Assembly (NCBI GenBank): GCA_041306075.1
Contig: JBFYKH010000071.1
Coordinates: forward strand, 1,499 to 65,498
DNA: 64,000 bases
Reading direction: 5' to 3'
DNA from: Candidatus Altiarchaeota archaeon
GTDB lineage: Archaea; Altiarchaeota; Altiarchaeia; IMC4; SCGC-AAA252-I15
The position numbers were made by a program, and so were the translations under genes. The notes under the pieces are model-generated. The model saw nothing but the letters and a program-made list of their open reading frames with translations. It did not search any database and was not told the DNA's origin. Below are positions 32,986 through 50,710 of this stretch, one piece after another (the stretch's first letter is position 1; every line of letters starts with the position of its first letter).

Positions 32986-34988
32986 CTTTCCTCTACGAAC
33001 ATGTACCTGCCGTGCCTGGGCTCGTATATTATCCCCTTGTTCCTGAGCTCGTTCACGACGCGCTCGACGTCGAAGCGGTCTATGTTCTTCGCCTTTGCGG
33101 ACTCCACCAGGTCGTCCAGGGTCGCCATGTTGTCCGGCGAGGCGCCGGCAAGCTGCCTCATGATGTCCTCCACAGCCTTTATCCTGTCCCTCACGCTCTT
33201 GGGGTGGTCCGTGACTATCCTGTCTATGTCGAGCTCGCCCGTGGCCGCGTCCGTCGCTATCTCCCTGAGGACGAACTCCGTCAGCCTGATGGCGCGGTCA
33301 ACGTCAGACAGCGACACCTCGTTGGAGAGGCGCATCTTCGCCGACGCCTCCGAAAGCCTGATGAGCGCCTCAAGCTGCCTCGGGGTCGCTGCGGCCGTGC
33401 CCTTGCTCCTGCCCCTCAAGGCGACGTAGAACCCCTTCAGCTTCTCGGCCGTGGTCGCGTCAAGCCGGGGGTTCACGTTCCTGCGCGCATAGGCGACGTA
33501 CTTCCTGAAAAGTCCCTGGTCTATCGCCGGCGCTATCTTCTTCATCTCCTCCTCGGACTGGTGCATGAGGAGCATCTGGTCTGCTATCGCCCTGTCCCTC
33601 TCGCTGTCGAGTATGTCCCTTATCGCGAAGATGAGGTCGAACCTGGATATCAGGGTCGGCGGTATGTCGAACTGGTCCGCCAGCGGCTTGTACGTGTCGA
33701 ACCTGGAGAACTTCGGGTTCGAGGCCGCGAGTATGCTCGTGTTCGCCTTGAACTTGGCGACTATCCCGGCCTTGGCGACGCTGATGGTCTGCTGCTCCAT
33801 GGCCTCGTGCATGGCGCTCCGGTCCTCCTTATCCATCTTGTCGAACTCGTCTATCGCGGCTATCCCGCCTCCCGCAAGGACGAGAGCCCCCGCCTTCAGG
33901 GTCCACGCGCCCTCCGCGAACTCGTCCTTCTCGGCGGTGGCCGTGAGCCCGGCGCCCGTGGTCCCCTTACCCGTGACGAATATGCATTTGGGGGCTATTT
34001 TCGTGACGTACTGGAGTATCCTGGATTTCGCGACTCCCGGGTCACCTATGAGGAGGAGGTGTATGTCGCCACGGGCGACGGTGCCCTCGGGCGTCACCTT
34101 GCCCTGCCTTCCGCCGAAGAGCTGGAGGGCTATGGCCTCCTTCATTTCGTTGTATCCGTAGATTGAGGGCGCTATCGACTTGATTATCTTGTCGTGGAGC
34201 TCCGGTTCCTTCGCCAAAAGGAGTATCTGCCTCTCCTCCTCGTCGCTGATGTCCAGCTCCTCGAACTCCTTCTGTATCGCCTCTATGTGGTTGACTTCGA
34301 TGCGCTTGTGGTATACGGCGCCCTTCATCTTCGGGGGCGTCAGCCGGACTATCCCCGTGATCATGACCTGGTCGCCCGCGGTCACGAGGTCGGTCATGTC
34401 GTCCTCGGCCCAGAGCTCGATTCTGCGGGCCTGCTCGCCGCCCCTCAGCATCTCGAGGGGCTCCTGTATCTCCAGGGACTGGACGTCCGTCCACATGCTC
34501 TCCTCCGCGATGAACCTGAGGTCGCTCTTGCCGCAGGACTTGCAGCGGTGCGGCTCGATGAGCATCATCTTGTCCTGCACCACCCAGTTCTTCTCGTCGC
34601 AGCGGTTGCACACGAAGAGGGCGTTCTGGACCTTCGGATTCACCTCCGTTATCTTGGTCACCGTCCCCTCGACGGCTATCATGCGGCCTATGTACTCCGC
34701 GGTGATGTTCCTGACATCGACGTTGTACCCCTTCACCTTCGGGAGGTTGGTGAACCTCGTGTGGAACTTCGGCTTCTCGACGATGGTGAGTATGCCCATG
34801 TTGTTGAGGATTTCGTCGAATAAGCTAAGGACCTCGTCGGGGCTCTCCCTAAGCCTGTCGGCGAGCTCGTGGTCGAAGCGCTCGAGCTCCGCGAAGTCCA
34901 GGACTAGGCTCTTCACGTCCGGGTACTTCTCCCCGAGCGTCCTCAGCTGCTCCTTCTGCCTTCCGATGAACTCCTCAACCTTTTCCAA
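32982..34988 (-). CDS. mcm: Minichromosome maintenance (MCM) replicative helicase
   Basis: 668 aa. Zn-finger (C4), Walker A GDPGVAKS, Walker B/arginine finger (IDEFDKM, SRFDL). The length shows there is no intein. Confidence 0.95.
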   Translation of the reverse strand: MEKVEEFIGRQKEQLRTLGEKYPDVKSLVLDFAELERFDHELADRLRESPDEVLSLFDEILNNMGILTIVEKPKFHTRFTNLPKVKGYNVDVRNITAEYIGRMIAVEGTVTKITEVNPKVQNALFVCNRCDEKNWVVQDKMMLIEPHRCKSCGKSDLRFIAEESMWTDVQSLEIQEPLEMLRGGEQARRIELWAEDDMTDLVTAGDQVMITGIVRLTPPKMKGAVYHKRIEVNHIEAIQKEFEELDISDEEERQILLLAKEPELHDKIIKSIAPSIYGYNEMKEAIALQLFGGRQGKVTPEGTVARGDIHLLLIGDPGVAKSRILQYVTKIAPKCIFVTGKGTTGAGLTATAEKDEFAEGAWTLKAGALVLAGGGIAAIDEFDKMDKEDRSAMHEAMEQQTISVAKAGIVAKFKANTSILAASNPKFSRFDTYKPLADQFDIPPTLISRFDLIFAIRDILDSERDRAIADQMLLMHQSEEEMKKIAPAIDQGLFRKYVAYARRNVNPRLDATTAEKLKGFYVALRGRSKGTAAATPRQLEALIRLSEASAKMRLSNEVSLSDVDRAIRLTEFVLREIATDAATGELDIDRIVTDHPKSVRDRIKAVEDIMRQLAGASPDNMATLDDLVESAKAKNIDRFDVERVVNELRNKGIIYEPRHGRYMFVEER

Positions 34989-35080
34989 GCCGACGCACCA
35001 GCCAAAAACCGGAGTAACGTATAGGTAGCGGGGGATTTATAAAACTATGCTTGGCGAACCCGCAATCAACTTCGTCATTT

Positions 35081-35098
35081 GTCGAACATACGTTCGAC
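35081..35098 (+). promoter_or_regulatory. Perfect palindrome GTCGAAC-ATAC-GTTCGAC, immediately upstream of the TATA elements (35101-35126) of the HTH regulator gene
   Basis: 7-bp inverted arms with a 4-nt spacer. It sits 33-50 nt upstream of the ATG at 35131 and just 5' of a TTTAAA/TATAAT pair. Confidence 0.4.
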
Positions 35099-35130
35099 AT
35101 TATTTAAACCTCACAGCCTATAATACGGCT

Positions 35131-35838
35131 ATGTCCAAGGAGACCGAAGGCGCGGCCAAGGTCATGGCGGGGGAGATAACGCTCTCCAAGGACCATGCGG
35201 AGTCCATGCGCAGATGGCGGTGCGCCTTCGGCGTGAGGCAGGCGGAACTCGCAAAAAGGCTGAAGGTGTCCCCATCCGTCGTCTCCGACTACGAGAGCGG
35301 CCGCAGGCGCTCACCCGGCGTGGGATACGTCAGCCGCCTCGTCGAGACACTCGTCGGCATCGACCTCGAACGCGGCGGCCAGGTCATATCCAAGTTCATC
35401 ACCCCCCACGAGCCGGGGGCCATACTGGACATCAGGGAGTTCGACGCCCCCGTGAAGGCGTCGCGCATCGTGAAGCTCCTGGACGGGGAGGTCCTCACCC
35501 AGAAGGCGAATGTCGCCCACAAGGAGATGATGGGCTACACCGTGATAGACAGCATCCAGGCGATACTCAGGCTCAACGACCGGGACTTCAGGACCATATA
35601 CGGCTCCACGACGGAGCGCGCCCTCGTGTTCACGAAGGTTAGGCTCGGCCGCTCCCCGCTCATCGCCATCAAAGTCACCCAGCAGAAGCCCGGGATGATA
35701 GTCCTTCACGGGCTCGCGGCTAACAAGGTGGACAAGCTCGCACTCCACATAGCGGAGAGCGAGAATATACCCCTCGCGGTGTCAGGGCTTAAAAACGAGG
35801 AAGACGTTATAGAAAGGCTCAGGAGGAACCTAACATGA
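35131..35838 (+). CDS. XRE-family helix-turn-helix transcriptional regulator with a C-terminal domain of unknown function
   Basis: [29 protein letters not shown]. The start was set at MSKETEG. Its stop overlaps the HMG-CoA synthase start. Confidence 0.7.
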
Positions 35839-36887
35839 CAGGGATAGTCGGCTACGGCGCATACGTGCCCAAGTACAGGATAAAGACGGTGGAGATAAGC
35901 AAGGTGTGGGGCGGAGAGGGCGACCGGGTCGCCAAAGGCCTGAACGTCCACGAGAAGAGCGTCCCCGGCCTCGACGAGGACGTCGTCACCATATCCGTAG
36001 CAGCTGCAAGGCTCTCAATCCGGCACGCGAGAATCGACCCGAAGGACATCGAGGCGATATACGTGGGCTCGGAGTCGCACCCGTACGCCGTGAAGCCGAC
36101 GGCGACGATAGTCGCGGAGGCGTTGGAGGCCACGCCCGACATGACGGCCGCCGACTTCCAGTTCGCATGCAAGGCCGGGACGGCCGCGATACAGACGTGC
36201 ATGGGCCTCACGAAGTCGAAGATGATAAAGTACGGCCTCGCCATAGGCGCTGACACGAGCCAGGGCAGGCCCGGGGACGCCCTCGAGTACACCGCGTCCG
36301 CGGGCGGAGCGGCCTACATCATCGGCGAGGAGAGGACCGTGGCGGACATAACGGACACATACTCGTTCTCCACGGACACCCCGGACTTCTGGAGGAGGGA
36401 GGGGCAGGATTTCCCGCGGCACGGCTCCAGGTTCACGGGCGAGCCCGCATACTTCAAGCACGTCATAGCCGCGTCGAAGAGGATAATGGAGCGCAACAGC
36501 CTCAAGCCGGAGGACTTCAAGTACGCGGTCTTCCACCAGCCCAACGGGAAGTTCCCGCTGCAGGCCGCCCACATGCTCGGATTCAAGCGGGAGCAGGTCG
36601 AAGCCGGCCTCCTCACGCCCGTCATCGGCAACACCTACTCGGGCGCGACGCCCATCGGCCTCTCCGCCGTCCTGGACGTCGCAGAGCCCGGAGACATGAT
36701 ACTGGCGACATCCTACGGCTCGGGGGCGGGAAGCGACGCCTTCGTCATAGAGGCGACCGACCTGATATCCGAAAACCGGAACCCGGAGCCGGTGAGGGAG
36801 CAGATAAAGCACAAAGAGTACCTGGACTACAGCATATACGCCAAATTCAAGGGCAAGATAAAGGGGGTATACCTCCAGAAAGGGTGA
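35835..36887 (+). CDS. Hydroxymethylglutaryl-CoA synthase (archaeal)
   Basis: 350 aa. Catalytic Cys region ([11 protein letters not shown]) and a thiolase-fold HMGS pattern. Confidence 0.9.
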
Positions 36888-36892
36888 ATGGG

Positions 36893-38062
36893 ATGACTGA
36901 CGTCGCAATAATAGGGGCCGGGGTGACCCAGTTCGGGGAATTCTGGGAGCGAAGCTACAGGGACCTGATAACCGAGGCGGGAGTGAAGGCGATAAAGGAC
37001 GCGGGCATAGACGGCATAGAAGTCCAGGCATTGTACGTGGGCTCCATGACGCCCGGCATCTTCATACAGCAGGAGCACATCGGCCCACTGGTGGCGGACA
37101 ACGCGGGCCTCACCGGCATACCGGCGACCCGCGTGGAGTCGGCCTGCGCATCGGGCGGAATAGCGCTCAGGGAGGCGTATCTCGCAATCAAGGCAGGCGT
37201 CGCGGACGTGGTCGTCGCGGGCGGCGTCGAGAAGATGACGGACGCCAGCATCGAGCACGCGACCGACGCGCTCGCAGGGGCCGCGGACCAGGAGTGGGAG
37301 GCCTTCCACGGGGTCACCTTCCCGGCATTGTACGCGATGATGGCGCGCCGCCACATGCTAGAGTACGGCACGACTGAGGAGCAGATGGGCATGGTCGCGG
37401 TCAAGAACCACCATAACGGGGCCTTCAACCCTAACGCGCAGTTCAGGAAGCCGGTGACGCTCGAGGAGGTCATGAAGTCCTCCCCGGTCGCGGACCCACT
37501 TAAGCTCCTGGACTGTTCCCCCATAACCGACGGGGCGGCGGCGGTCATACTGGCGAGCCGTGAGCGCGCCCGGGAACTCTGCGACAACCCGGTCTGGATA
37601 ACAGGCTCCGGTCAGGCGTCCGACACCCTGGCATTGCACGACCGCAAGAGCCTGTGCAGGACGGAGGCCGCGGTGAAGGCCTCGAAGATGGCCTACAAGA
37701 TGGCCAACGTCTCGCCCGCGGACCTGGACTTCGCGGAAGTCCATGACTGCTTCACGATAGCGGAGATAATGGCGATAGAGAGCCTCGGCTTCTGCAAGCT
37801 CGGGGAAGGCGGCAAGTTCACCGAGCGGGGGGAGACGTCCCTGAAGGGCTCGATGCCCGTCAACACGTCGGGCGGCCTCAAGGCGAAGGGCCACCCTGTG
37901 GGGGCGACGGGGATAGCCCAGGCGGTGGAGGCGGTGCTTCAGCTTCGGGGCAAGGCCGAGAAAAGGCAGGTTGACGGGGCGAAGGTCGGCCTCGCCCACA
38001 ACGTCGGGGGCAGCGGCGCCTCATGCGTGGTCCACATATTCGAGAACGAGGTGCGGAAATGA
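36893..38062 (+). CDS. Acetyl-CoA C-acetyltransferase (thiolase)
   Basis: N-terminus MTDVAIIGAG and the thiolase Cys (VESACASGG). The ORF track starts at a GTG at 36884. The ATG at 36893 is preferred. Confidence 0.88.
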   Translation: MTDVAIIGAGVTQFGEFWERSYRDLITEAGVKAIKDAGIDGIEVQALYVGSMTPGIFIQQEHIGPLVADNAGLTGIPATRVESACASGGIALREAYLAIKAGVADVVVAGGVEKMTDASIEHATDALAGAADQEWEAFHGVTFPALYAMMARRHMLEYGTTEEQMGMVAVKNHHNGAFNPNAQFRKPVTLEEVMKSSPVADPLKLLDCSPITDGAAAVILASRERARELCDNPVWITGSGQASDTLALHDRKSLCRTEAAVKASKMAYKMANVSPADLDFAEVHDCFTIAEIMAIESLGFCKLGEGGKFTERGETSLKGSMPVNTSGGLKAKGHPVGATGIAQAVEAVLQLRGKAEKRQVDGAKVGLAHNVGGSGASCVVHIFENEVRK

Positions 38063-38460
38063 CGGAAGGCCTTGCGTTGCACTGGAGGCTCATCCAGCCC
38101 AGGTACAATCTCGTCGGCAGCGTCTGCAAGACGTGCGGTCAGCATTATTTCCCGCCGAGGAACATCTGTCCGGACTGCAGGCGAAGGGGCGTGATAGAGA
38201 AGTTCAAGTTCTCGGGCGAAGGCGAAGTCTACACCTACACGGTGGTGCGCGCGGCGCCGACCGGGTTCGAGTACCAGAAGCCCTACGTCGTCGCGATAGT
38301 CAAGCTGAGTGAGGGCGCCCTTTGCACCGCGCAGCTCGTCGACTGCAGGCCGGAGGAGGTCGAGGTCGGCAAGCCGGTGGAGATGGTGTTCCGGAAGATT
38401 ATGGCGGACGATGAGGCCGGGATAATCCGTTACGGGTATAAGTTTAGGTTAAAGAGATAG
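38059..38460 (+). CDS. DUF35 OB-fold/Zn-ribbon protein (scaffold of the archaeal thiolase-HMGS complex)
   Basis: The C4 zinc ribbon (CKTCGQHYFPPRNICPDC) is followed by an OB fold. The start overlaps the thiolase stop (ATGA). Confidence 0.8.
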   Translation: MTEGLALHWRLIQPRYNLVGSVCKTCGQHYFPPRNICPDCRRRGVIEKFKFSGEGEVYTYTVVRAAPTGFEYQKPYVVAIVKLSEGALCTAQLVDCRPEEVEVGKPVEMVFRKIMADDEAGIIRYGYKFRLKR

Positions 38461-38630
38461 TTTAATCTAAATTTATAAATACGTGGTACCTTGGTTAACA
38501 AGAACACATTTAGAAAAGTAAATGTGCAAATGTAACCTATCTACCTCCCCCAACCACCCCCCCAAAACACCCCCTAAACCCCACACTCAGTTTTTTACCA
38601 CAACCACCACTAATCATAACCAAAACACAA

Positions 38631-38733
38631 GCCTAAAGCCAAGCCTGGATATTCGAGAACCCGGTGGGTTCTCTCACCCGGACAGCCTTCGGCTGTCCAA
38701 GGTGGCGTCAGCGAATCCAGGACGGCTTAGGCG
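38631..38733 (+). pseudogene. tRNA-like fragment: a duplicate of the tRNA-Arg D-arm and the 5' anticodon-stem strand, interrupted by a 51-nt hairpin-rich insert
   Basis: GCCAAGCCTGGATA and TGGCGTCAGC are identical to the downstream tRNA-Arg. They are separated by TTCGAGAACCCGGTGGGTTCTC...ACAGCCTTCGGCTGT. I could not fold a complete cloverleaf on either strand. Confidence 0.3.
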
Positions 38734-38745
38734 GAAAAAGACATT

Positions 38746-38820
38746 GGGCCTGTAGCCAAGCCTGGATATGGCGTCAGCCTTCTAAGCTGAAGATCCCGGG
38801 TTCAAATCCCGGCGGGCCCG
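38746..38820 (+). tRNA. tRNA-Arg (anticodon TCT)
   Basis: A manual cloverleaf gives acceptor GGGCCTG/CGGGCCC (one G-U pair), D-stem GCCA/TGGC, anticodon stem TCAGC/GCTGA with loop CTTCTAA, and T-arm CCGGG-TTCAAAT-CCCGG. No CCA is encoded. A T6 run follows at 38842-38848. Confidence 0.8.
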
Positions 38821-38855
38821 AATCCGATAAATTCACTTAGATTTTTTGTCGCCTA

Positions 38856-38870
38856 CCCGCCGGGCCCGAA
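38856..38870 (+). repeat. Imperfect direct repeat (14/15) of the tRNA-Arg 3' end, 48 nt downstream of it
   Basis: cccgccgggcccgaa here, against cccggcgggcccgaa at 38808-38822. Confidence 0.35.
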
Positions 38871-38961
38871 CAAGTATATCCGACCAGCCCCCACAACCTT
38901 TTAACGTTGAAAACTCATTAGAAGTGAACCCCCGCCATTCGCTTAATGCTTAGCCCCTACA

Positions 38962-39666
38962 ATGGTTTCAAGGAATCTTTGGCCGGTTTACCTGGGCATT
39001 TCCTTATGCGTTTGGCTGGCATACTGCGGCATCGAATATCTTTTTATTCTCGATGATGAAAGCAACCCCCTAGCGAACAGGCCCTTACTGGTTTTTTTGT
39101 ACGGTTTCAAGTACTTGCTTCTCTTTTTTGCGATATTCCTATTCTTTATGTCAGTGTATGTGTCGGCATTAGCTTACCCTGGCCAGACAACAAGGGTATC
39201 CCTCCTCCTTAGCATGGTGGTGGTGCCCTCGTTCCTCATACTCCCGCTTATCCCCCTAAGATTTTTGCCTCCACGAAGCGATATGGACGGCCTCGGCGCG
39301 GCAATGTACGTCCTGTTTTTCATTCCGATTTCAGCCTTGTTCTTCTTTGTGTCCTCCCTGATAATCTCCCAGGTCGCCAATAAGGTGGACTGCGTGAGAC
39401 GTAAGGAAAATAAGGCCTCTATATTCCTCTGGCCGATAGTCATATCCTGTTTACTCTTCTACCTTCTCTCTGCTGCAATATACCTTGAAAAAGATTATGG
39501 TTACAAAGACCCTTTGCCGATAATCATCATAACCGCCCTTACAGGATTCTCTCAGGGACTGCCATTTGTCCTTGTGTACGTCCCCATATACGCGCTCACC
39601 ATCTTGAATCTAGGCATATACTCAATTCGGCGGCGACTGCATAGCAAAAGTCGTAATTTACCCTAG
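38962..39666 (+). CDS. Low-GC (about 46%) polytopic membrane protein, unknown function
   Basis: 234 aa, about 7 TM helices, Phe/Leu/Ile-rich. Its composition is sharply different from the ~63% GC of the flanking genes. Confidence 0.5.
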   Translation: MVSRNLWPVYLGISLCVWLAYCGIEYLFILDDESNPLANRPLLVFLYGFKYLLLFFAIFLFFMSVYVSALAYPGQTTRVSLLLSMVVVPSFLILPLIPLRFLPPRSDMDGLGAAMYVLFFIPISALFFFVSSLIISQVANKVDCVRRKENKASIFLWPIVISCLLFYLLSAAIYLEKDYGYKDPLPIIIITALTGFSQGLPFVLVYVPIYALTILNLGIYSIRRRLHSKSRNLP

Positions 39667-39745
39667 TCCTCACTTCCAGAGGGTGTCGACGAAGTTGGTG
39701 GATTCGACTATCATCCGGCATTTCAGTAGCTTCTGAAAACAGGCT

Positions 39746-40186
39746 TCAGCGGTGATATCTATCCCCTGCGTTTATCGTGCACCCCCTGTAGACTTGTTCG
39801 AGGAGCATCACCCTCGCTAGCTGGTGGGGGAAGGTCATGTCCGACAGGCTCAAGGCGAGGCCGGCCCTTTGTTTCACGGCGTCGGAGAGGCCTTCGGGGC
39901 CGCCTATTATGAATGTGACGTCGGTTTTTTTGAGGAGTCTGGCCATCCCCTCCGATGTGAGCCGCATGCCGCGTCTGTCCAGGACGACGGCGTATGTGTC
40001 GTTGCGCAATAGGGCGAGGATTGCGTCGGCCTCCCTCATCATCGCGACCTCCGAGTTCTTGTCAGTGCACTCCTTGAGTTCGCGGACTTCGACCTTCGCG
40101 TACCTGCCCAGCCTCTTCAGGTATTCGCCTGCCGCCTCGGCGTAATGCCTTTCTTTGAGCCTGCCGACGCAGACTATCCGTATCAC
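39746..40186 (-). CDS. rlmH: 23S rRNA methyltransferase RlmH (SPOUT family)
   Basis: 146 aa. The C-terminal pattern IIGGPEGLS...LSLS.MTFPHQLARVMLLEQVYR...YHR matches RlmH. Confidence 0.8.
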   Translation of the reverse strand: MIRIVCVGRLKERHYAEAAGEYLKRLGRYAKVEVRELKECTDKNSEVAMMREADAILALLRNDTYAVVLDRRGMRLTSEGMARLLKKTDVTFIIGGPEGLSDAVKQRAGLALSLSDMTFPHQLARVMLLEQVYRGCTINAGDRYHR

Positions 40187-40875
40187 GGTAACCTATGCTC
40201 TGGGAGGCGATAAATACGGTATGTGTGTATGCGGTTTTCGCCGTCCGGCATGCTCCCTTCCAGGGGCATCTGCTCACCCGTCACCGCCTTCTCCCACACG
40301 GCGCCCTGGCCTGCGAGCACGTCCTCCAGGACTGTGGGCGTCCTCCTGCCGGCTTGCGTTCCGCCGGCTGCAGCTGACACTATATCGTCGGTGACCTGCA
40401 GGGTCTTGTTCACTCCAAAGCCGAGCGCCGTCAGACACAGCTTCAAGAGCTCTTCTACTCCCCCCCTGTGTGTGTAGCCTCCGGTCCCGTCGTCGTAGTT
40501 GAACAGGTTGAAGACGGCGACGTGGTCGACGGAGCCTGCCGGCAGCTCGCTCAGGTAGTCTTCTGCCCGGCCGTTATAGTCCCGGACGCGGGCGGGGAGC
40601 CTCCGGTACTCCATGGCGTACGCCATAAGCTGCGTGCCGTCCGGGTCCGCCCTCGCGGTATCGCATCCCATGAGCGCGTCAAGGTAGGGCAGTATGGACG
40701 AGCCGGATGCTATGTGGAGGCTGGTGTTCGGGCGGAGGCGGGCATCATCCGGGAAGACGGATTCCAGGTACAGGCGAAGCTTCCGGTAAACGGGGTCGGC
40801 CGCATTAGACGGCGCCTCAGGGACGTCGAGTCCGACGACTGCCCGGAGGGCGTCCTCCCTCCCCGGGTGGGCCAT
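40183..40875 (-). CDS. Hypothetical protein
   Basis: 230 aa. Translationally coupled to rlmH through an overlapping stop and start. No family recognised. Confidence 0.45.
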   Translation of the reverse strand: MAHPGREDALRAVVGLDVPEAPSNAADPVYRKLRLYLESVFPDDARLRPNTSLHIASGSSILPYLDALMGCDTARADPDGTQLMAYAMEYRRLPARVRDYNGRAEDYLSELPAGSVDHVAVFNLFNYDDGTGGYTHRGGVEELLKLCLTALGFGVNKTLQVTDDIVSAAAGGTQAGRRTPTVLEDVLAGQGAVWEKAVTGEQMPLEGSMPDGENRIHTYRIYRLPEHRLP

Positions 40876-41180
40876 CAGACCAGCGTCTCGGGCGGCTTCG
40901 CGGATATGATGTCGCTTTCAGCCCTGATGAGCTCATCGAGGTGCCTTTCCTCGTGGCGCCAGACGTACAGGCTCATGAGCGCCGCCAGTAGGATGATCGT
41001 CAGGGCCAGGAGGACTATAACGCCAGCCGCGACCGTCAAGGAGACCTCCTTGCCGGTGTAAATCAGGGCGGTGGCTATTATGCCGCTGCAGAGCAGGGAC
41101 GCCATGACCGTGAAGATTGTCCTATAATAGTCCCAGTATATCCGGCCTCTCTCCAAGTCGACCCTGAAAATCTTGTCCAT
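40875..41180 (-). CDS. Small membrane protein (2 TM helices)
   Basis: 101 aa with two hydrophobic helices and a charged C-terminus. Confidence 0.45.
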   Translation of the reverse strand: MDKIFRVDLERGRIYWDYYRTIFTVMASLLCSGIIATALIYTGKEVSLTVAAGVIVLLALTIILLAALMSLYVWRHEERHLDELIRAESDIISAKPPETLV

Positions 41181-41185
41181 GATAA

Positions 41186-42181
41186 CTATTTCCCGGCCTT
41201 TTTAATAACCGCCGGTTTCGTCCTCGCCTTCATCCTGTAGTACTGCAGCGGGTGCTTGACCTGGCAGTCCGCCTTGCAGAGGCCGTGCCCCCTGATGGTC
41301 TCGCAGGTGGGGCAGGTGTACTCTGTCCCCCCGCGCTCCCCGGTTATGAATCCGAGTTGGTAGACCGTCTTCTCCTCGTCGTACTTCGGGCTCTTGGAGA
41401 AGACCTTGAGCATCTCGGCCTGGGGGAGACCGAGGTTGGCCAGGAATGTGGCGAGTATGAACATCGCGTTGTGGGACGCGGCACCCGCCTCCATCGCCGC
41501 CACGATGCCCTTCATGCAGGGCGGCACGGCCTCGTCCTCGAGGGCATCCACCTTCGACTGGGGCCTGAGCCCTATGAGCGTCGCCTTCACGGCGGCCGCC
41601 TCCTTCTTGACTTCCTCCGGAATCCTCTTCAGGTCGATGGGCTCCAGGACACGCTCCCTCACCGCCTCCCTCACGAGGAGCCTGACCTCCTCCCCGTCCA
41701 CGTCGACTTTCCCCTTGTCGACGACGCGGTTCACGAGCTTCCACCTCGGATTCTTCCTGGCGGCCTGGGCTGCGAGCCTCACGTACCTTAGAACCGGCAT
41801 CCTCCCCTCGTCGACTTCCAGGCCGAGGTCGTCGGTCACGGCCTTCACTACCGGGGGGCTTTCGGCCTCGAGCATCGCGTAGGCCGCGTCCGCCTCGCCG
41901 TCCGCGTGCCTCTGTGCAGCCTGCGGCCCAGCAGCCTGCGCGAGCATCCTCGCGAGCGGGTAGCTCAGGACTGTGAGCTTCGCCGACAGTTCGCTGTCGT
42001 AGGCCGGCCTGTACTTCTGGGCGATGCAGTCCAGCACCCTCTCCCGCCCGTACCTGAGGGCGGCGGAGTAGACCGGGTGCGCTAGAAGCTCGCTGAACGA
42101 CAGGCCCATGGAGGCGACGTAGTCCCGGCTGCCCCTCAGGAACGGGTAGCGCGCCAGAAACGTGATATCCCCGGAATCCAT
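41186..42181 (-). CDS. priL: DNA primase large subunit PriL
   Basis: 331 aa. C-terminal Fe-S domain pattern (PPCMKG, NAMFILATFLANLG, CPTC...C...C, HPLQYY), as in archaeal PriL. Confidence 0.75.
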   Translation of the reverse strand: MDSGDITFLARYPFLRGSRDYVASMGLSFSELLAHPVYSAALRYGRERVLDCIAQKYRPAYDSELSAKLTVLSYPLARMLAQAAGPQAAQRHADGEADAAYAMLEAESPPVVKAVTDDLGLEVDEGRMPVLRYVRLAAQAARKNPRWKLVNRVVDKGKVDVDGEEVRLLVREAVRERVLEPIDLKRIPEEVKKEAAAVKATLIGLRPQSKVDALEDEAVPPCMKGIVAAMEAGAASHNAMFILATFLANLGLPQAEMLKVFSKSPKYDEEKTVYQLGFITGERGGTEYTCPTCETIRGHGLCKADCQVKHPLQYYRMKARTKPAVIKKAGK

Positions 42182-42205
42182 CCGTAATAGAATACGCCGC
42201 CCCCA

Positions 42206-43084
42206 TTAAAGGCTTTCCTTCGCCTTCAGCACCTGGTAGCTGACGTAGTCCCAGACCCTCCCCGAGAGCATGTAGGCTCCGTTCATGAACTTCTTGGACG
42301 CCTTCAGGGCGTCATAGTCGTCCGGCTTCACGGCCGCGGGCACGTAGCCGTCGTTCTCCTTCACAGGGTCGTCGACGAGGATGTATGTCCTGTACGCCCT
42401 CTTCTGCTCGTCTGTGGTTATCACGTGGGCGGTGAAGCCGACCTCCCATACGTCGCTCCACACGTAGCCGTCGAACACCTGGATGTCGGCCTTGTAGTTG
42501 CCTGGCTGCTCCATCATGTACCTCGTGGCTGGCCCGCTGAACTCCCTGCTCAGTATCGGCTTCGCGTGCATGTCGTGGGTTATGTCCGTTATGTTCAGCC
42601 TGGAGGTGACTATCTCCCTCCTGTCCGCGTCCTCCGTCGATATGAAGTAGCGGACGTCGTGGCCGACCATGAGGTTGCCTATCTCCAAGTACCTGACGAC
42701 CGGCCTCCAGTGGCTCAGGTAGTCCACCTTGACGCTGAACATGGTGTCCGTGTCGGCGCCGTATTCGACGACGTTGCAGCCGAGCTTGAGGGCGTCGGTG
42801 GGCTGCCTGTAGGCGTCGTTTTCGACGGTGAGGTTGAATATGTGCCTGACGCCGTTGACTGCGACGTACGGGTTCACGGTCGGTTCCTCCCCTTCGCCGG
42901 AGACTGTAATCGTCTGGTTGGTGGGGTCCACCTCGCCTTCCACGCACACAACGTACCTTCCGTCGACGCCGGGGTACTTCACCATCGTGTACCCCTCTGT
43001 GGAGTAGCTGAGCCAGGAGCCGGTCGCGAAGACCAGAACCAAGGTCGCGAAGACCAACAGCTTGACCGCCCCGGAAACGCCCAT
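42206..43084 (-). CDS. Secreted/exported hypothetical protein (N-terminal signal anchor, several N-x-T sequons)
   Basis: 292 aa with an N-terminal hydrophobic segment and an extracytoplasmic-looking composition. Confidence 0.5.
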   Translation of the reverse strand: MGVSGAVKLLVFATLVLVFATGSWLSYSTEGYTMVKYPGVDGRYVVCVEGEVDPTNQTITVSGEGEEPTVNPYVAVNGVRHIFNLTVENDAYRQPTDALKLGCNVVEYGADTDTMFSVKVDYLSHWRPVVRYLEIGNLMVGHDVRYFISTEDADRREIVTSRLNITDITHDMHAKPILSREFSGPATRYMMEQPGNYKADIQVFDGYVWSDVWEVGFTAHVITTDEQKRAYRTYILVDDPVKENDGYVPAAVKPDDYDALKASKKFMNGAYMLSGRVWDYVSYQVLKAKESL

Positions 43085-43207
43085 GGAATAAATTATGCGC
43101 CCGCCTATTTAATCGGCCGAAGGCATATCTTCTACGTGGCTTCGGCAGGCACGCGTCCGGGCAGGCTGCTCGCCCTGATAGAGACCCTACGGAGGGACAG
43201 GAGCGCC

Positions 43208-43567
43208 ATGGAGCTCGAGCTCCTCCACGGGGGCGCGGAAGTCGAGGAGGACCTGAAGCTCCTAGTCCGGCTCGGCCTCGCCGGGAAGGCGAAGGGCGTC
43301 GTCTACGCCACGGAGGCCGTCGACCAGCCGCTCACCGAGAAGCAGCTTGCGGAGGTCGAGGACCACGTCCTCGGCCAGGAGGAGGCGAGGGACTTCCGGC
43401 GGCTCATGGGGCTCTCAGGCGGCCTCAGGAAGGAGGCCGTCGCGGGGGAGGAGCCGCCCAAGCTGAATGGCCCCGACGAGGCCACCGTGAAAAAGTACGC
43501 GAAGAGCTTCCTCGACGTGTCCGAGATTGCCATGCGGCAGCGGGGGAGCAAGGCGGGTGGGGGATGA
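43208..43567 (+). CDS. Small hypothetical protein, possibly winged-helix. It may start at the upstream GTG at 43136
   Basis: It is the real C-terminal part of the artefactual ORF 42425-43567. Its stop overlaps the start of the downstream lipoprotein gene (ATGA). Confidence 0.4.
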   Translation: MELELLHGGAEVEEDLKLLVRLGLAGKAKGVVYATEAVDQPLTEKQLAEVEDHVLGQEEARDFRRLMGLSGGLRKEAVAGEEPPKLNGPDEATVKKYAKSFLDVSEIAMRQRGSKAGGG

Positions 43568-45198
43568 GGCGGCAGGTCGCTTGTCTCATGCTGCTTTCGG
43601 TCTTCGTCCCCGGCTGCATCATGGGCGGCCAGGTCAGCTGCGACGACGACAACCCCTGCACCTATGATTACCTAACGGACGGCTCATGCTCGCACAGGCC
43701 GCTCTCCGGCCCTGTTGACGGCTGCTTCGGCGCCGGCGGCTGCATGGAGTACTCGTGCTTCGACGGCTCATGCATCCTCCAGAGGCTGATGCAATGCTGC
43801 GGCAACGGCGCCTGCGACGGCGGGGAATCACCGGAGCGATGCCCCTCGGACTGCCAGGCCACATGCCGTGACGGCGAACGAAACCAGGGCGAGCAGGGCG
43901 TCGACTGCGGGGGGCCGTGCGGCCCCTGCGAATCCGAGCGGGCCAACTACCTGCGGAAGCTGGGGGAACTCAGGACCCAGTGGCAGGCGTCGGCATCCAA
44001 CTACACAGCGGCCCTAAGGGAGTACGAGGTGGGACGGAACGCCACTCTGCTCATGTCCGCGGCGCTCACCTCCTACGGCGAGTCCGAGAGGATAAGGGGC
44101 GTCCTCGACCGCGCAATCATACCCCGCGAGAACGCGCGGCTCCGCTTGATGTTCAACGACACGCTCAGCACGTACCTCTCCGCCCTCGAGGCGATGTCGA
44201 AGTACGCGGCCTCTGGCAGGGACGTCAACCGCCGGGAGGCGAACCGCCTCTCCGCCCTGGCGTTCGGGCTCGACCGCGACTTCGTCCGCGAATTCAACAG
44301 CGCGGTCGACGAAGTCAACAGGATGGAGCTAGGGTGCGTCAACTTCGTCCAGGACCCTGGTGAGGAGGGAGTCGACTGCGGCGGCCAGTGCAGGACACCT
44401 TGCGAGACTACGTTCAACGTCACCAAGCGAGTCACCGTGAGGATAGCGGACGGCCCAGCCAAGCTGACGGTCAACGTCAGCTCCCCGGCCATCAACTATC
44501 CCCCCCAGCAGAGGCTCATCGCAAGCTCGCTTGAACCTGAGCCGGACCGGGTGTCGAAGGACCAGGAAGGCAACGTCAACTACGAGTACTACCTCGACAT
44601 GCCGGCTTACGGAATCACCGACCTATACATCACGCAGACCCTCAGGTTCAAGAGGGCCGGATGGCCTGCGAAGTCGGCTTCCGCATACGAGAGCCCCCTC
44701 TACCTCCAAGGCAACAACTACAGCGCCCTGTCGGCGGACATATGCCGCGAAGCCGGGATAATCCGCTCGGGCGTCAACTCCACCCCCGAGTACCTGATGG
44801 CAGCCGAGGAGTGGATGAACCGGAACATCGCATACGAGCTCAACCACGAGGAACTCGGCGCCCAGTACTGCTACGCCAGCCGCCGGGGGGCGTGCGACGA
44901 GCAGGCCGACCTCTACGTGTCGCTGATGCGCTGCAATGGCGTGCCTTCCAGGCGGGTGACGGGCTCCCTCGTCAACGGAAGCCATCTCGGCGGCCACGCG
45001 TGGGCGGAATACTACGACGGCGGATGGGTGTACGTGGACCCCTCGGCAAGGCGGAGGGAGCAGGCCTTCACATTCGACAACAAGCACGTCGCCGCGTGCG
45101 TCGGCGAAGGCGCATACAACTGCGGAGTAGGCTACTACTACACGTACGCGAAGAAGCGGCCGAAGATAGAGATAACCGAGCGGACGTACATGCAGTGA
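43564..45198 (+). CDS. Lipoprotein with two Cys-rich modules and a C-terminal transglutaminase-like cysteine-protease domain
   Basis: Lipobox-like LSVFVPGC. Duplicated G-(E/Q)-GVDCGG-x-C-x-x-C-E modules. Transglutaminase core pattern (YCYASRRGACDEQADLYVSLMRCNGVPSRRVTG ... HAWAEYYDGGWVYVDPS). Confidence 0.7.
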   Translation: MRRQVACLMLLSVFVPGCIMGGQVSCDDDNPCTYDYLTDGSCSHRPLSGPVDGCFGAGGCMEYSCFDGSCILQRLMQCCGNGACDGGESPERCPSDCQATCRDGERNQGEQGVDCGGPCGPCESERANYLRKLGELRTQWQASASNYTAALREYEVGRNATLLMSAALTSYGESERIRGVLDRAIIPRENARLRLMFNDTLSTYLSALEAMSKYAASGRDVNRREANRLSALAFGLDRDFVREFNSAVDEVNRMELGCVNFVQDPGEEGVDCGGQCRTPCETTFNVTKRVTVRIADGPAKLTVNVSSPAINYPPQQRLIASSLEPEPDRVSKDQEGNVNYEYYLDMPAYGITDLYITQTLRFKRAGWPAKSASAYESPLYLQGNNYSALSADICREAGIIRSGVNSTPEYLMAAEEWMNRNIAYELNHEELGAQYCYASRRGACDEQADLYVSLMRCNGVPSRRVTGSLVNGSHLGGHAWAEYYDGGWVYVDPSARRREQAFTFDNKHVAACVGEGAYNCGVGYYYTYAKKRPKIEITERTYMQ

Positions 45199-45229
45199 GT
45201 TAAATAAGCGTCTCCCCAGGTTCTATTAC

Positions 45230-45748
45230 ATGGCACTCTACGGCTTCCGATGGTTCGACAAGAGCCTCGCAGGCTGCGCGGTATTCATGCTTAAGGAGGA
45301 CGTTAACGAGCTCAAAGGCCACGGCATAACCGCGGTCGTGTCGCTGCAGGATTTGGCCGAGACCAGGGATGCATGCCTGGAAGGCGGCCTGAAGCGCATA
45401 GTACTGCCGCTTGCGGGCGGCGAGTTGCCGGGCGAGGAGATGCGCACATCCTTCCTCGACTTCGTCAGGGGGGAGGCAGCAGCCGGCGGGAAGACTGTGG
45501 TGCACTGCGCCGGGGGGACGTGGAGGACGGCCCTGATGGGCGCGTACTGGCTGATAGAGAACGGCTCCACGGCGGAGGAGGCGGTGGAACGCGTCAGGTA
45601 CGTAATGCAACGCTACCAGCTAGACGGCCTAAGGGGATTCGCCCTAAAGAAGGCAGGGGAGCGGGCGTGCATCGAGGATGGCTTGAGGAAAGTGGCGCCA
45701 GCAGGCGACCAGGCCGGCAACCAAGAGCCTAAAACGGAAAAACACTGA
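45230..45748 (+). CDS. Dual-specificity/tyrosine protein phosphatase-like protein
   Basis: CX5R P-loop (VHCAGGTWRT). Confidence 0.7.
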   Translation: MALYGFRWFDKSLAGCAVFMLKEDVNELKGHGITAVVSLQDLAETRDACLEGGLKRIVLPLAGGELPGEEMRTSFLDFVRGEAAAGGKTVVHCAGGTWRTALMGAYWLIENGSTAEEAVERVRYVMQRYQLDGLRGFALKKAGERACIEDGLRKVAPAGDQAGNQEPKTEKH

Positions 45749-45808
45749 TTCTGCGGTCTATCAGCCGGCCGGAGAGGATTTTTATCCTGCGGGTTCCCGT
45801 AACCTAAC

Positions 45809-46477
45809 ATGAAATGGAGGCTTTTCAGGCGGCAAGGCGGCTCCGAGGATGAGAAGGCCGTCCCGCCCGAGATGCTGCCGGCACCCCTTGAAGACCTGGA
45901 AGGAAGGGTCGATGCAGCCATCACCGACTACAAGGAGCGAGCGACGAAGACGGGCTCACGCATGATAAACATCGTCCCCGAAGCGTACCAGGACCACGTC
46001 CGGCTCCTGGCCCGGATAGCGTACCCTGCCAAGAACAAGGGGAGGAACGCCGGCGATTTCGAGGACGCGGTGGCGTTGAACTGGCTCGTCAAAGTCAGCC
46101 TCTTCAAATCCATCGGGCAGCAGTGGGGCCTCCATGAAGCCAGGGCTGTTGGGTCGGATGAGGCGAAGTCCGGCCTCGCGCTCACGAAGTCGGCATCCCT
46201 CTTCGCGTTCTCCGCCCCGGACGCGGCGAAGAAGAGGAGGATGATGTACGACCGCATCTCGGAGCGGGAGGCGTCGACCATGCCCAAGGACTTCACGGCG
46301 TCGCTGCCAGGCGGCGTGGAGGTAGGCTCCAAAATAATCGTGCCATCCTACCAGTTCCACTCATCCACGGTCATCGAGATGATGGCATCCGGGAAGGCCG
46401 GCGACGTCTCACAGGAAAAGAGCGTCCAGGACATGCGGCGCACGTTCCTCGCGGTCGACAGGAAGACGATGCTATAG
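45809..46477 (+). CDS. Hypothetical protein
   Basis: 222-aa ORF with protein-like composition. No family recognised. Confidence 0.45.
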   Translation: MKWRLFRRQGGSEDEKAVPPEMLPAPLEDLEGRVDAAITDYKERATKTGSRMINIVPEAYQDHVRLLARIAYPAKNKGRNAGDFEDAVALNWLVKVSLFKSIGQQWGLHEARAVGSDEAKSGLALTKSASLFAFSAPDAAKKRRMMYDRISEREASTMPKDFTASLPGGVEVGSKIIVPSYQFHSSTVIEMMASGKAGDVSQEKSVQDMRRTFLAVDRKTML

Positions 46478-46984
46478 GCGCATCCTGTCCACGAGGTAGT
46501 AAGTGATGTCGCACTCCTCGTCGACTATCGCGTATATCATGTCCTTGTTCACGTTCTTGGCGAGGCGGAGGGCGCGGGCCATCTCCGGGAAGCTGCACGT
46601 GTACTCCTCCGGGACGACGTGGACGAGGTACCTGCTGTGCCCCTTCCCCACGGCCTCCCCGCGCTCGTACAGCCTGAAGTCGGTGCCGAACTTGAGGCCG
46701 CTCCTAACCATCATGCCCCGCTCGCGCAGGTCCTTGTAGACCAGGTACTTGTTGTAGAACTCCTCCTCCTTCGCGGAGCCGAGCTTCACGACCTCCTCGA
46801 ACGACAGGGCGTCCTTGCCTTTGACAATTTCCATCTTCCCGGTCTCCAGGAGGTAGGCGGCCTCTATGATGGACAGGACGAGGGCCTTTTCCTCCATCTC
46901 CCCGTATCCCTTCTCCTTCAGCTGGCTCTTCAGGTCCCCGTCGCCGACCAAGACCTTCGTCCCAGACAATATCCCGGCAGCCAT
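46472..46984 (-). CDS. endA: tRNA-splicing endonuclease EndA (short, homotetramer-type)
   Basis: 170 aa. C-terminal catalytic pattern (GxKFGxDFxLY ... HSRYLVHVV ... K). Confidence 0.8.
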   Translation of the reverse strand: MAAGILSGTKVLVGDGDLKSQLKEKGYGEMEEKALVLSIIEAAYLLETGKMEIVKGKDALSFEEVVKLGSAKEEEFYNKYLVYKDLRERGMMVRSGLKFGTDFRLYERGEAVGKGHSRYLVHVVPEEYTCSFPEMARALRLAKNVNKDMIYAIVDEECDITYYLVDRMRL

Positions 46985-47080
46985 CCTACGGAGGTATTAT
47001 TCCGCCTACGCGATTATATAACGGAATGGCAGAGAAGACGTCCGAAGCCGTGAAGCCGAGGGGCGGCGTCAGGTGATAAT

Positions 47081-47857
47081 GTGCCGTCAGTGCCCACGCT
47101 CGAGGAGATGGGGGTCGCGGGCCTCGTTCCGGAAGAGAAGCCTGATGTGAAGGCGTCTGCGCCCGAGGACGCGCAAGCTGGCGAGGATTACGCCTTCCTG
47201 AACGGCATGCTATTCCTCTCGTTCGTCGCGCCAGCCCTGTTCGCGAAGCTCATGGGCTGGCCGCTCGCCACGTTCCACCAGTTCGTCTTCGTATGGGTAC
47301 ATGAGGCGGGCCACGGATTCTTCGGCCTCCTCGGGAACCGTGTCGTAGCGTCGGCGGCGGGGACGTTCAACGAGCTCCTGTTCACCCTCGTCCCAGCCGC
47401 CATCTGCCTCAGGGACCGGCGGGCCGTCCTCGGAGGCCTCGTCCTCCTGATGTGCGCGGGCCTAAGCGTACAGCATGCCGGATGGTACATGATGAGCGCG
47501 GAGCTCCCGTACGGATACGGCTTCGGCGGCATCAAGATGACGCCAGAGAGCCACGACTGGTCGGTGATATTCAGGGAACTCGGCTTCCTCAGGCAGTCGT
47601 ACGCGATAGGCCAGGCGACCGCAGAGGCAGGCCATGCGCTGGCGGTGATATTCCTCATCGCATCCTTGCTCGGTGCGGTACCGACGCTGTACGGCTGGCG
47701 GCCCGGAAGGTTATTCGACATAGTCTCGCCGTCATCGCTGGCCGCCCTCCTATACCTCCTCCTGTCCGGCTCAAGCCTGCTGGAAATCTCCATAGCCTTG
47801 CTGTTCACGCTCCCCCTCGCCTACCGCATACTCCTTAAATCCCGCCCTTCCGATTAG
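47081..47857 (+). CDS. Polytopic membrane protein with an HExxH (HEAGH) motif in a TM helix: putative intramembrane metalloprotease-like protein
   Basis: 258 aa. HEAGHGFFG in the TM region, a later SHDW motif and about 6 TM helices. Confidence 0.55.
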   Translation: MPSVPTLEEMGVAGLVPEEKPDVKASAPEDAQAGEDYAFLNGMLFLSFVAPALFAKLMGWPLATFHQFVFVWVHEAGHGFFGLLGNRVVASAAGTFNELLFTLVPAAICLRDRRAVLGGLVLLMCAGLSVQHAGWYMMSAELPYGYGFGGIKMTPESHDWSVIFRELGFLRQSYAIGQATAEAGHALAVIFLIASLLGAVPTLYGWRPGRLFDIVSPSSLAALLYLLLSGSSLLEISIALLFTLPLAYRILLKSRPSD

Positions 47858-47862
47858 TCAAT

Positions 47863-49184: not shown

Positions 49185-49233
49185 TTACCCAGGGCATACT
49201 CTTCAGCGGCCCATTAGGCGCACGGCCACAGAC

Positions 49234-50208: not shown

Positions 50209-50245
50209 CCGGCGTATTTATCCCCCGGGAGCGGTATCTTCTATT

Positions 50246-50686: not shown

Positions 50687-50710
50687 CCTGCGACCACGTA
50701 TCTAAATACG

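Follow-up and report, generated by a model that had tools for sequence, protein, structure and literature searches.

Directly upstream of an intact tRNA-Arg(TCT) gene in the window (the whole 64-kb stretch of DNA analysed, from an Altiarchaeota-like archaeon), we found a structured element that copies the 5' half of a tRNA-Arg and carries a two-hairpin insert. Comparison with related loci suggested that this upstream fragment is a selectively maintained, transcribed tRNA-derived RNA and that the insertion downstream of the tRNA is a separate, later event, a reading to which we give about an even chance of being right. The element is probably an undescribed small RNA. The features of the locus are collected in Table 1.

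Table 1. Features at the tRNA-Arg(TCT) locus (positions are those of the window)
Feature	Position	Strand	Basis or remark
A/C-rich, almost G-free tract	38533..38630	+	one G in the whole tract
Structured RNA element from tRNA-Arg 5' half (predicted)	38629..38734	+	covariance model R1, fold
5' arm, copy of tRNA positions 3-24	38631..38652	+	20/22 match to 38748-38769
51-nt insert	38653..38703	+	splits the tRNA copy; two perfect hairpins
Hairpin 1	38655-38673	+	perfect pairing, within 51-nt insert
4-bp helix CACC/GGTG	38675-38678 with 38701-38704	+	at 51-nt insert
Hairpin 2	38680-38698	+	perfect pairing, within 51-nt insert
GGCGTCAGC, copy of tRNA positions 23-31	38704..38712	+	identical to tRNA
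Tail GAATCCAGGACGGCTTAGGCGG	38713..38734	+	imperfect reverse complement of the element's 5' arm
Spacer AAAAAGACATT, 11 nt	38735..38745	+	without upstream motif of its own
Intact tRNA-Arg(TCT)	38746..38821 (approximate)	+	ARAGORN and Rfam (67.9 bits); 100% identical in L014
T6 run, likely archaeal tRNA terminator	38843..38848	+	terminator role inferred
GC-rich near-palindromic repeat ACCCGCCGGGCCCGAA	38853..38870	+	tRNA 3'-end copy
About 0.8 kb missing from L014	38871..39669	+	contains ORF 38962-39666
ORF, 234-aa membrane protein	38962-39666	+	6-7 hydrophobic segments

An earlier note on this DNA had described a low-GC island at the tRNA, and both window sizes used here bore this out. GC content fell from 0.62-0.69 to 0.44-0.49 across 38300-39700 in 300-nt windows, and in 700-nt windows (mean 0.623, sd 0.031, minimum 0.467) the same stretch was the sole one below 0.52 in the 64 kb. 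The intact tRNA-Arg(TCT) and the A/C-rich tract upstream of it were likewise recovered as described, the former by ARAGORN and Rfam as the single tRNA of the window, and the tRNA-splicing endonuclease gene placed about 8 kb away was found at 46472-46984 on the minus strand, 7.7 kb off. The genes neighbouring the island are housekeeping genes; a DUF35 (OB-fold/zinc-ribbon) gene lies directly upstream of it. Comparison with relatives revealed that the locus is a synteny breakpoint. At the orthologous loci found via the DUF35 gene (L001-L005 and L011), the upstream operon was kept and the tRNA was missing, which is a rearrangement at the locus, and no further element copies were present.

The fragment upstream of the tRNA had been described as sharing 24 nt with it, split by a 51-nt insert of two strong hairpins. 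The repeat and both hairpins were confirmed, but the shared length is 31 nt and partly includes the acceptor stem. The 5' arm spans the acceptor 5' strand, the D-stem 5' strand and the D-loop, and the exact 16-mer AGCCAAGCCTGGATAT occurs at two sites only in the window, this arm and the tRNA. Beyond the insert, GGCGTCAGC spans the D-stem 3' strand, position 26 and the anticodon-stem 5' strand; the window copy has no anticodon loop, anticodon-stem 3' strand or T-arm. In predicted folds the tail GAATCCAGGACGGCTTAGGCGG pairs with the 5' arm and closes the structure, which consists of a closing stem, a D-loop/tail helix, the two hairpins and a small GC hairpin (-58.4 kcal/mol for the whole element, z = -6.4 to -6.8). 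Over 38629-38734, Rfam 15 gave no credible match, with the intact tRNA alone matching nearby; the overlapping matches mir-9460 and BSR1073 had E = 4-10, far under the gathering thresholds. Rfam likewise gave no match to the homologous elements of L029, L030 and L020, and ARAGORN found nothing over the window's upstream element.

The element was then compared with its counterparts in relatives. Between the window and its closest relative, L014, which is collinear with it, 6 of 103 nt of the element differ (94% identity), and identity in the flanking intergenic DNA is 40-41%, so the element is not decaying; this comparison of sequences shows that it is under purifying selection. Gene conversion, rather than selection, could keep the tRNA-like parts identical. 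Homologues were found upstream of tRNA-Arg(TCT) in L014, L029/L036, L030 (two tandem copies, a and b, one of them decayed) and L020, that is, in at least three lineages besides those of the window and L014. Their covariance model R1 scores were 107 bits for the window, 105 for L014, 83 for L030b, 78 for L029/L036, 50 for L030a and 45 for L020. The family comprises five or six sequences from four or five lineages, several of them from related sediment metagenomes. L029 and the window fall into one broad group: the TMEM260-like protein of L029 is 52-59% identical to the counterparts that adjoin RlmH in L035 and L043. The earlier note had held that the same arrangement in relatives would speak against an insertion; the upstream element was indeed shared, whereas the membrane gene was absent from L014.

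No other copy of the element was detected across the 217 kb searched, comprising the 64-kb window and 21 loci, and a viral collection contained no copy of the 5' element and none of the tRNA D-arm. Among the RlmH neighbours with available DNA, a tRNA was present in L035 only, a normal tRNA-Arg(CCT). The neighbours of the L029 hydrolase yielded no further element, and that family's own contigs all end at the repeated leader; the hydrolase family itself is widespread in bacteria and archaea.

The stems remained paired in the window, L014, L029, L030b and L020 despite double substitutions, and hairpin 1, the CRCC/GGUG helix and hairpin 2 were fully paired in every intact copy. At least 7 base pairs were altered on both sides in a manual table of the six real copies; computed covariation statistics were set aside because the alignment included weak chance matches fitted to the model. 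The CCTGG/CCAGG helix of the tail region was predicted in L030b as well. The hairpin cores AACC/GGTT and AACAG/CTGTT are conserved, and loop lengths differ, the halves of hairpin 1 lying 4 to 7 nt apart among lineages. Such variable spacing favours RNA hairpins over a DNA site, since it would suit a protein dimer poorly. We weighed the possibility that the element acts as DNA, being a palindrome for protein binding or recombination or a MITE-like sequence with terminal inverted repeats, and consider it highly improbable. The window and L014 copies are edged by inverted arms of about 22 nt and both hairpins are perfect palindromes with conserved cores, as such a site would have; however, the inverted arms are missing in L029, a target-site duplication was not seen, and there is one copy per locus with none elsewhere in the 217 kb searched.

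The tRNA-like parts follow the adjoining tRNA, with GGGCCTG and TCAGC in L014, GGGCCCG and TCAGC in L029, and CCAGC in L020 and L030, where the counterpart of GGCGTCAGC reads GGCGCCAGC and the adjoining tRNA also has CCAGC. In L014 and L029 the 5' arm is identical to the adjoining tRNA from position 1. The region after the anticodon-stem strand varies. In the window and L014 the tRNA copy runs to position 31 and gives way to the self-complementary tail; in L029, L030b and L020 it lies behind a tRNA-type upstream motif (a putative promoter) and reaches positions 39-40. The loop is anticodon-like in L029 and has 8 nt in L030 and L020. Given this variability among lineages, a single common function is uncertain, and the family may not have one.

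Among the element copies, L029 alone has a 7-nt anticodon loop, CUCCUAA. Its sequence, which contains a CCU anticodon, is perfect and identical to that in the genuine tRNA-Arg(CCT) of L035, and the copy also retains the acceptor, D-arm and anticodon stem. Freed of its insert and joined to the 3' half of the adjoining tRNA, the L029 copy gave a tRNA-Arg(CCT) that ARAGORN accepted, and it has an upstream motif of its own. These features would fit a disrupted tRNA-Arg(CCU) whose 5' half is the element, with cis- or trans-splicing to the neighbouring or another 3' half and with the insert as an unconventional D-arm intron; so would the element stems, which follow those of the tRNA whose 3' half would be shared, and the splicing endonuclease gene in the window. 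We nevertheless regard this as decidedly unlikely. A strict scan for bulge-helix-bulge (BHB) motifs at five loci (window, L014, L029, L030 and L020), with relaxed motifs checked by eye, revealed none at the insert borders or at the junctions between element and 3' part, and no motif common to different loci; at the loci examined there was also no BHB or extended complementarity to downstream segments. The 3' border of the insert falls within the conserved 4-bp CRCC/GGUG helix. The anticodon loop is missing in the window and L014 and has 8 nt in L030b, L020 and L030a, the 64-kb window holds no orphan T-arm, and a related lineage carries tRNA-Arg(CCT) as a normal gene. With introns of 0-400 nt allowed, ARAGORN returned the intact tRNA only, as did the Rfam tRNA model. 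One BHB-like motif, in L014, would allow the entire element to be excised; it was judged to be chance, because it needs the palindrome GGCC of the repeated acceptor and is absent in the window and L029. The alternative offered by the earlier note, an intron-containing or split tRNA precursor, thus found no support in the window, which has no BHB, anticodon loop or T-arm in the fragment. It is also unlikely, in our judgement, that a tRNA-Arg 5' half with a non-BHB D-arm insertion is joined by a novel route to the 3' half of the adjoining tRNA, or serves Altiarchaeota-like archaea as a dedicated tRNA-half mimic regulating translation or the processing of tRNA-Arg. If it were so joined, one locus would yield both Arg isoacceptors, UCU and CCU.

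The motif CTAATCATAACCAAAAC lies at 38610-38626, just before the element, and a TATA-like TTTTTTACC at 38591-38599, inside the A/C-rich tract. The CTAATCATAACCAAAAC motif also precedes true tRNA-Arg genes and element copies in relatives: this same motif, of the TAATCATATACC type, was found just 5' of tRNA-Arg(CCT) in L035, before both the tRNA and element b in L030, and before the tRNA in L020; we infer that the upstream motif is a promoter. The element and the tRNA are separated by 11 nt in the window versus 13 nt in L014, and the final 35 nt 5' of the window tRNA contain no AT-rich box; in L029 and L030 a promoter-sized spacer of about 60-140 nt lies between fragment and tRNA. From the motif 5' of the element and the 11-nt gap, the element and tRNA-Arg(TCT) are probably co-transcribed, and since no separate upstream motif lies in the spacer, transcription of the tRNA probably runs through the element.

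We propose that the maintained RNA may go back to a tRNA-Arg gene of which a part, the promoter and 5' half (positions 1-39), was duplicated or displaced, with the two hairpins placed in the former D-arm. The element and tRNA-Arg(TCT) would be made as a single precursor, from which the RNase P cut at the tRNA 5' end would free an RNA of about 115 nt. The released RNA would form a compact junction, predicted to be three-way, with a tRNA-like 5' arm shut by the inverted-repeat tail. As the anticodon-loop part varies or has been lost, selection would act on the fold rather than on decoding. With transcription and processing deduced from the sequence, the role is most likely that of a stable tRNA-half-like small RNA or of a cis-acting leader of the tRNA-Arg precursor. 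We also considered whether the fold insulates the tRNA against mispairing of the pseudo-5' half with the tRNA 3' half, and rejected this idea, as it had in silico support in the window only: the true acceptor stem formed there with P 0.99 (0.18 without the tail), and the corresponding values in L014 and L029 were 0.02 and 0.00.

Downstream of the tRNA, its last 15 nt had been reported to recur 48 nt further on. This was verified: with a spacing of 48 nt, 38856-38870 repeats the tRNA end at 38808-38822 directly, 14 of the 15 positions agreeing, and 0.03 matches were expected by chance. ACCCGCCGGGCCCGAA matches CCCGGCGGG as an inverted repeat (9/9) and aligns to ACCTGCTGGG of the L014 trailer, a segment homologous to an inverted tRNA 3'-end copy in the L035 trailer. 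At the place corresponding to the T6 run, L014 and L029 have an A5-hairpin-T5; this conserved trailer hairpin was considered as part of a 3' tRNA piece and is better read as an A5-stem-T5 terminator.

The approximately 0.8 kb that follows is foreign DNA with a rare membrane-protein gene, inserted recently in a separate, later event beside the tRNA-end repeat. The 234-aa low-GC membrane protein of the earlier note was upheld, as was its foreign composition (GC 0.465; GC3 0.57 versus 0.78-0.89 in neighbouring genes), and an open frame of this length appeared in 7 of 20000 shuffles. The protein had no Pfam or PHROG match and no homologue by word index; an exhaustive search with HMMER returned three relatives, of which one could be traced to an archaeal contig of 36% GC, and this ruled out an ORFan. 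Situated between the tRNA and the insertion, the 15-nt repeat does not bracket the latter, and no copy of the repeat was found at the far end near 39670. We regard the locus as a recombination hot spot that rearranges often and still takes up foreign DNA.

These findings bear on whether both tRNA fragments are neutral attL/attR scars of mobile-element integration and excision at tRNA-Arg, with the low-GC gene as a remnant of the last element. The anticodon loop and the T-loop are classical crossover sublocations in tRNA integration sites, and the partial copies here end at the anticodon loop and start in the T-loop. The synteny breakpoint, the window-specific 0.8-kb foreign insertion adjoining the 3' repeat and the inverted tRNA 3'-end copy in L035 agree with such scars, as do two tailed-virus contigs from related samples (L045 and L046) that carry 25-33 nt of the tRNA 3' part without a whole tRNA. 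A precedent exists in Caldiarchaeum, where a tRNA 5' fragment lies upstream of the gene (PMC3293823). Against this, the upstream element is conserved like a functional RNA, with compensatory changes, and its 51-nt insert would be left unexplained; no integrase or recombinase was found in the island or any related locus examined; the far end of the insertion has no repeat; and the gap in L029 and L030 is only promoter-sized, with no element body left. We consider neutral scars unlikely. The footprint of integration and decay proposed by the earlier note fits the downstream part, with 0.8 kb missing from L014, foreign composition and a tRNA-end repeat, but not the upstream part, which is conserved and covarying.

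Fragments of tRNA genes beside intact genes are usually taken as dead integration scars, and they have also been discussed as raw material for split tRNA genes. The fragment described here has long been kept, with an upstream motif, an added two-hairpin module and compensatory evolution, and may have gained an RNA function or represent a living intermediate to or from a disrupted tRNA gene. It is a candidate RNA family missing from Rfam, in a phylum without cultured members. The locus offers a testable case of tRNA halves turning into independent genes, and the adjoining insertion indicates that it still acquires foreign DNA.

Split and tri-split tRNA genes occur in Nanoarchaeum equitans and Caldivirga maquilingensis, and their halves carry complementary flanks that form a BHB with the partner. 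The present locus resembles them in having a possible tRNA 5' half with a separate putative promoter and a 3' half that could serve two isoacceptors, here Arg CCU and UCU; it differs in that no BHB-forming flanks are present, the window copy has no anticodon loop and a complete tRNA adjoins. The rtT RNA of E. coli tyrT derives from tandem 178-bp units downstream of the tRNA that hold partial copies of its 3' end, and is released by tRNA processing. Both cases would involve a partial tRNA copy in the tRNA's transcription unit and a small RNA freed by tRNA processing, whereas rtT is bacterial, consists of downstream 3'-end copies, has no D-arm insertion and shares no homology. SSV-type and pNOB8-type integration into archaeal tRNA genes duplicates att sites, with SSV1 in tRNA-Arg (PMC3293823). 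The short direct tRNA-end copies, the low-GC foreign DNA and the tRNA-Arg target are common to these systems and our locus; unlike them, it has no whole or partitioned integrase, its repeat does not bracket the insert and its upstream copy is under selection. In Caldiarchaeum subterraneum, a 5' fragment of tRNA-Thr(GGU), tRNA-Thr-F, lies upstream of the intact gene, separated from it by a 1.8-kb recombinase-bearing element; the fragment reflects heterogeneity at the population level, and the gene holds the additional sequence, a BHB intron (Sugahara et al. 2012, PMC3293823). Both loci show the tRNA's 5' part as a direct repeat upstream of an intact gene, a fragment and gene that differ by an insert, and a tie to rearrangement and foreign DNA. 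In our locus, in contrast, a spacer or promoter alone lies between the two, without a recombinase, and the insert is in the fragment, has no BHB, and is conserved and covarying across lineages.

We confirmed the low-GC island around tRNA-Arg(TCT), the single tRNA in the 64 kb (ARAGORN and Rfam): its GC content is 0.44-0.49, five standard deviations below the mean, and it is the sole place in the window below 0.52. The repeats and hairpins described in an earlier note were all present, far beyond chance, and the tRNA-splicing endonuclease gene that it placed near the locus was found. The best relatives of the flanking proteins were MAGs labelled Candidatus Altiarchaeota or Altiarchaeales (60-77% identity). 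Sequence comparison indicates that the island has two parts: a new candidate RNA, old, conserved and structured, whose sequence derives from the 5' half of a tRNA-Arg gene, and foreign DNA recently inserted at the 3' flank of tRNA-Arg(TCT).

Features of the tRNA-Arg(TCT) region, in window coordinates
Feature	Position	Strand	Remark
Mevalonate-pathway operon (HMG-CoA synthase, thiolase, DUF35 OB-fold protein)	ends 38460		upstream border of region
AT-rich block	38461-38530		holds TTTATAAATA
TATA-like box	38591-38599		TTTTTTACC
tRNA-type upstream motif	38610-38621		CTAATCATAACC
Upstream element	38629-38734	+	partial tRNA-Arg copy
51-nt insert of element	38653-38703		
Tail of element	38713-38734		
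tRNA-Arg(TCT)	38746-38821		
15-nt repeat	38856-38870		
234-aa membrane ORF	38962-39666		in 0.8-kb insertion
42-nt block	39670-39711		
RlmH methyltransferase gene	39746-40186	-	convergent, downstream border of region
Splicing endonuclease gene	46472-46984		

The closest relative is metagenome contig L014; it is collinear over 33198-42496 of the window (protein identity 80-95%) and carries both the upstream element and the tRNA. About 90 nt after the tRNA it reaches the end of the RlmH region, and the 0.8 kb that holds the 234-aa ORF is absent, indicating that the membrane gene was inserted later. The two tRNAs are 100% identical, and the element differs at 6 of 103 nt (2 in the acceptor-like arm, 3 in the hairpin 1 loop, 1 in the tail), while the intergenic DNA on both sides of it is just 40-41% identical. 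Because a neutral remnant would have diverged as its flanks did, the comparison shows that the element is under purifying selection. Two short blocks at the borders of the region were also noted. The AT-rich block that adjoins the DUF35 stop codon shares 77% identity with L014, the following 100 nt being unalignable; it contains a strong TATA-like box. Just past the RlmH stop codon, on its 3' side, 41 positions of the 42-nt block agree with L014 despite diverged adjacent coding sequence; the block could encode a 14-codon ORF on the minus strand (MIVESTNFVDTLWK) or be a conserved 3' UTR hairpin (GTCGA...TCGAC).

Metagenome contigs were scanned for the D-arm and anticodon region of the window tRNA, which yielded 20 loci. 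The AT-rich loci among them carry an ordinary tRNA gene; in four GC-richer loci (L014, L020, L029 and L030) tRNA-Arg(TCT) is preceded by a homologous element. L029 and the window belong to one broad group: the TMEM260-like protein of L029 is 52-59% identical to those flanking RlmH homologues in two compared contigs, L035 and L043. In L035, from a related lineage, RlmH is followed directly by a normal tRNA-Arg(CCT) (3471-3600); an RlmH gene adjoining a tRNA-Arg gene is common to L035 and the window, with differing anticodon and orientation. The elements share a common plan: the tRNA acceptor 5' strand, D-stem 5' strand and D-loop; YUC; hairpin 1 (7-9 bp, core AACC); U; a 4-bp helix CRCC/GGUG around hairpin 2 (7-9 bp, core AACAG); and GGCG followed by the anticodon-stem 5' strand. 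Every stem is fully paired in the five intact copies, with at least 7 pairs altered on both sides; in L030 the older tandem copy is decaying. The halves of hairpin 1 lie 4-7 nt apart, since loop lengths vary, which argues for RNA hairpins and against a DNA site recognised by a protein dimer. The tRNA-like parts track the neighbouring tRNA lineage by lineage (GGGCCTG in L014, GGGCCCG in L029; TCAGC in the window, L014 and L029, CCAGC in L020 and L030). A covariance model made from the element copies themselves scored them at 107, 105, 83, 78, 50 and 45 bits and found no further copy in 217 kb (the window and 21 loci).

The stretch after the anticodon-stem strand varies by lineage. In L029 it is CUCCUAAG, which forms a perfect CCU anticodon loop and exactly matches that of the genuine tRNA-Arg(CCT) by RlmH in L035; L020 and the two tandem copies L030a and L030b have 8-nt loop variants. 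The loop is missing from the window and L014, where a 22-nt tail takes its place; this tail is, imperfectly, the reverse complement of the 5' arm of the element itself, so that the whole element is predicted to fold as a closed junction (-58 to -61 kcal/mol, z about -6.5). The CCUGG/CCAGG part of this closure is predicted in L030b too. We also tested the idea that folding stops the pseudo-5' half competing for the tRNA 3' strand. By equilibrium folding, a weak guide, the true acceptor stem was predicted in the native window precursor (P = 0.99) and fell to 0.18 when the tail was deleted; mispairing was predicted in the native L014 and L029 precursors, and the idea therefore does not hold in general.

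An intron-containing or split tRNA precursor, the alternative raised in the earlier note, is not an absurd idea for L029, since its copy minus the insert, joined to the neighbouring tRNA 3' half, makes an acceptable tRNA-Arg(CCT) (ARAGORN). A strict scan of five loci found no bulge-helix-bulge (BHB) splice motif at the insert borders, none pairing the element with any downstream piece and none common between loci; the insert's 3' border falls within the conserved 4-bp helix. Over the element, neither Rfam (E up to 10) nor ARAGORN with introns permitted gave a credible hit. With no BHB motif, no orphan T-arm in the window and a copy that cannot decode, this reading is unsupported there; for the family as a whole it keeps a slight residual likelihood.

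A TATA-like box precedes the genuine tRNA-Arg genes of L035, L030 and L020, as does a TAATCATATACC-type motif 5-20 nt before position 1, and the elements carry the same type of motif upstream. The element-to-tRNA gap in the window is just 11 nt and has no AT-rich box, suggesting that the tRNA is probably transcribed through the element, which RNase P would release as a ~115-nt RNA. L029, L030 and L020 have a second motif copy ahead of the tRNA, and in L029 the two units share ~120 identical nt spanning the leader and the 5' tRNA sequence. The ~95-nt leader ahead of element and tRNA (L029 170-265 and 390-488), identical in both units, consists of GACTGTAGAC/GGTCTTSA-type repeats forming long hairpins, and all contigs of the L029 organism break at this repeat.

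Downstream of the tRNA, L014 and L029 have an A5-hairpin-T5, a likely terminator, followed by a 15-18-nt copy of the tRNA 3' end matched to each lineage's own tRNA; the L035 trailer holds an inverted 15-nt copy of its own (14/15). The window repeat aligns with the L014 segment homologous to the L035 inverted arm, and its direct and inverted readings are inseparable because the sequence is nearly palindromic. Immediately after it begins the 0.8-kb insertion. The 234-aa ORF is a real gene, a chance open frame being improbable, with 6-7 hydrophobic segments. It had no match in Pfam, PHROGs or a word-indexed protein search; exhaustive HMMER against 1.84 billion representatives found three relatives (47-55% identity). 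The nearest (47%; L047 1482-2138, in a 36%-GC archaeal contig) is a 30%-GC gene after a VWA-domain protein, amid chromosomal genes near a Tyw1-like radical SAM gene, with no tRNA nearby. This context fits transfer from a low-GC lineage into a 62%-GC genome. The island has no integrase, and no repeat closes the far end of the insertion. The integration footprint proposed earlier thus holds in spirit for the downstream insertion, absent from L014, and fails for the conserved, covarying upstream element.

Compared with Altiarchaeota genomes L001-L004, the stretch that follows DUF35 in the window (38461-54935) is inverted: in L001-L004 an MgtC-like gene comes next after DUF35, and after it the genes that the window has in inverted order at 54846-49222. 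L014 has the window order. The tRNA locus is thus one breakpoint of a ~16-kb rearrangement also present in L014, the other being the 85-nt gap in front of the SHMT gene. Stretches of 25-33 nt identical to the tRNA 3' part (T-arm and acceptor 3' strand) occur in two head-tail virus contigs (L045 8230-8275, L046 1300-1345), whose sample numbers suggest that they come from related sediment samples; these stretches could be attachment sites. The two contigs encode terminase, portal, capsid and tail tube and hold no complete tRNA; no integrase was seen in the parts examined. The closest published case is a tRNA-Thr 5' fragment in Caldiarchaeum subterraneum, explained by integration of a pNOB8-like element (PMC3293823).
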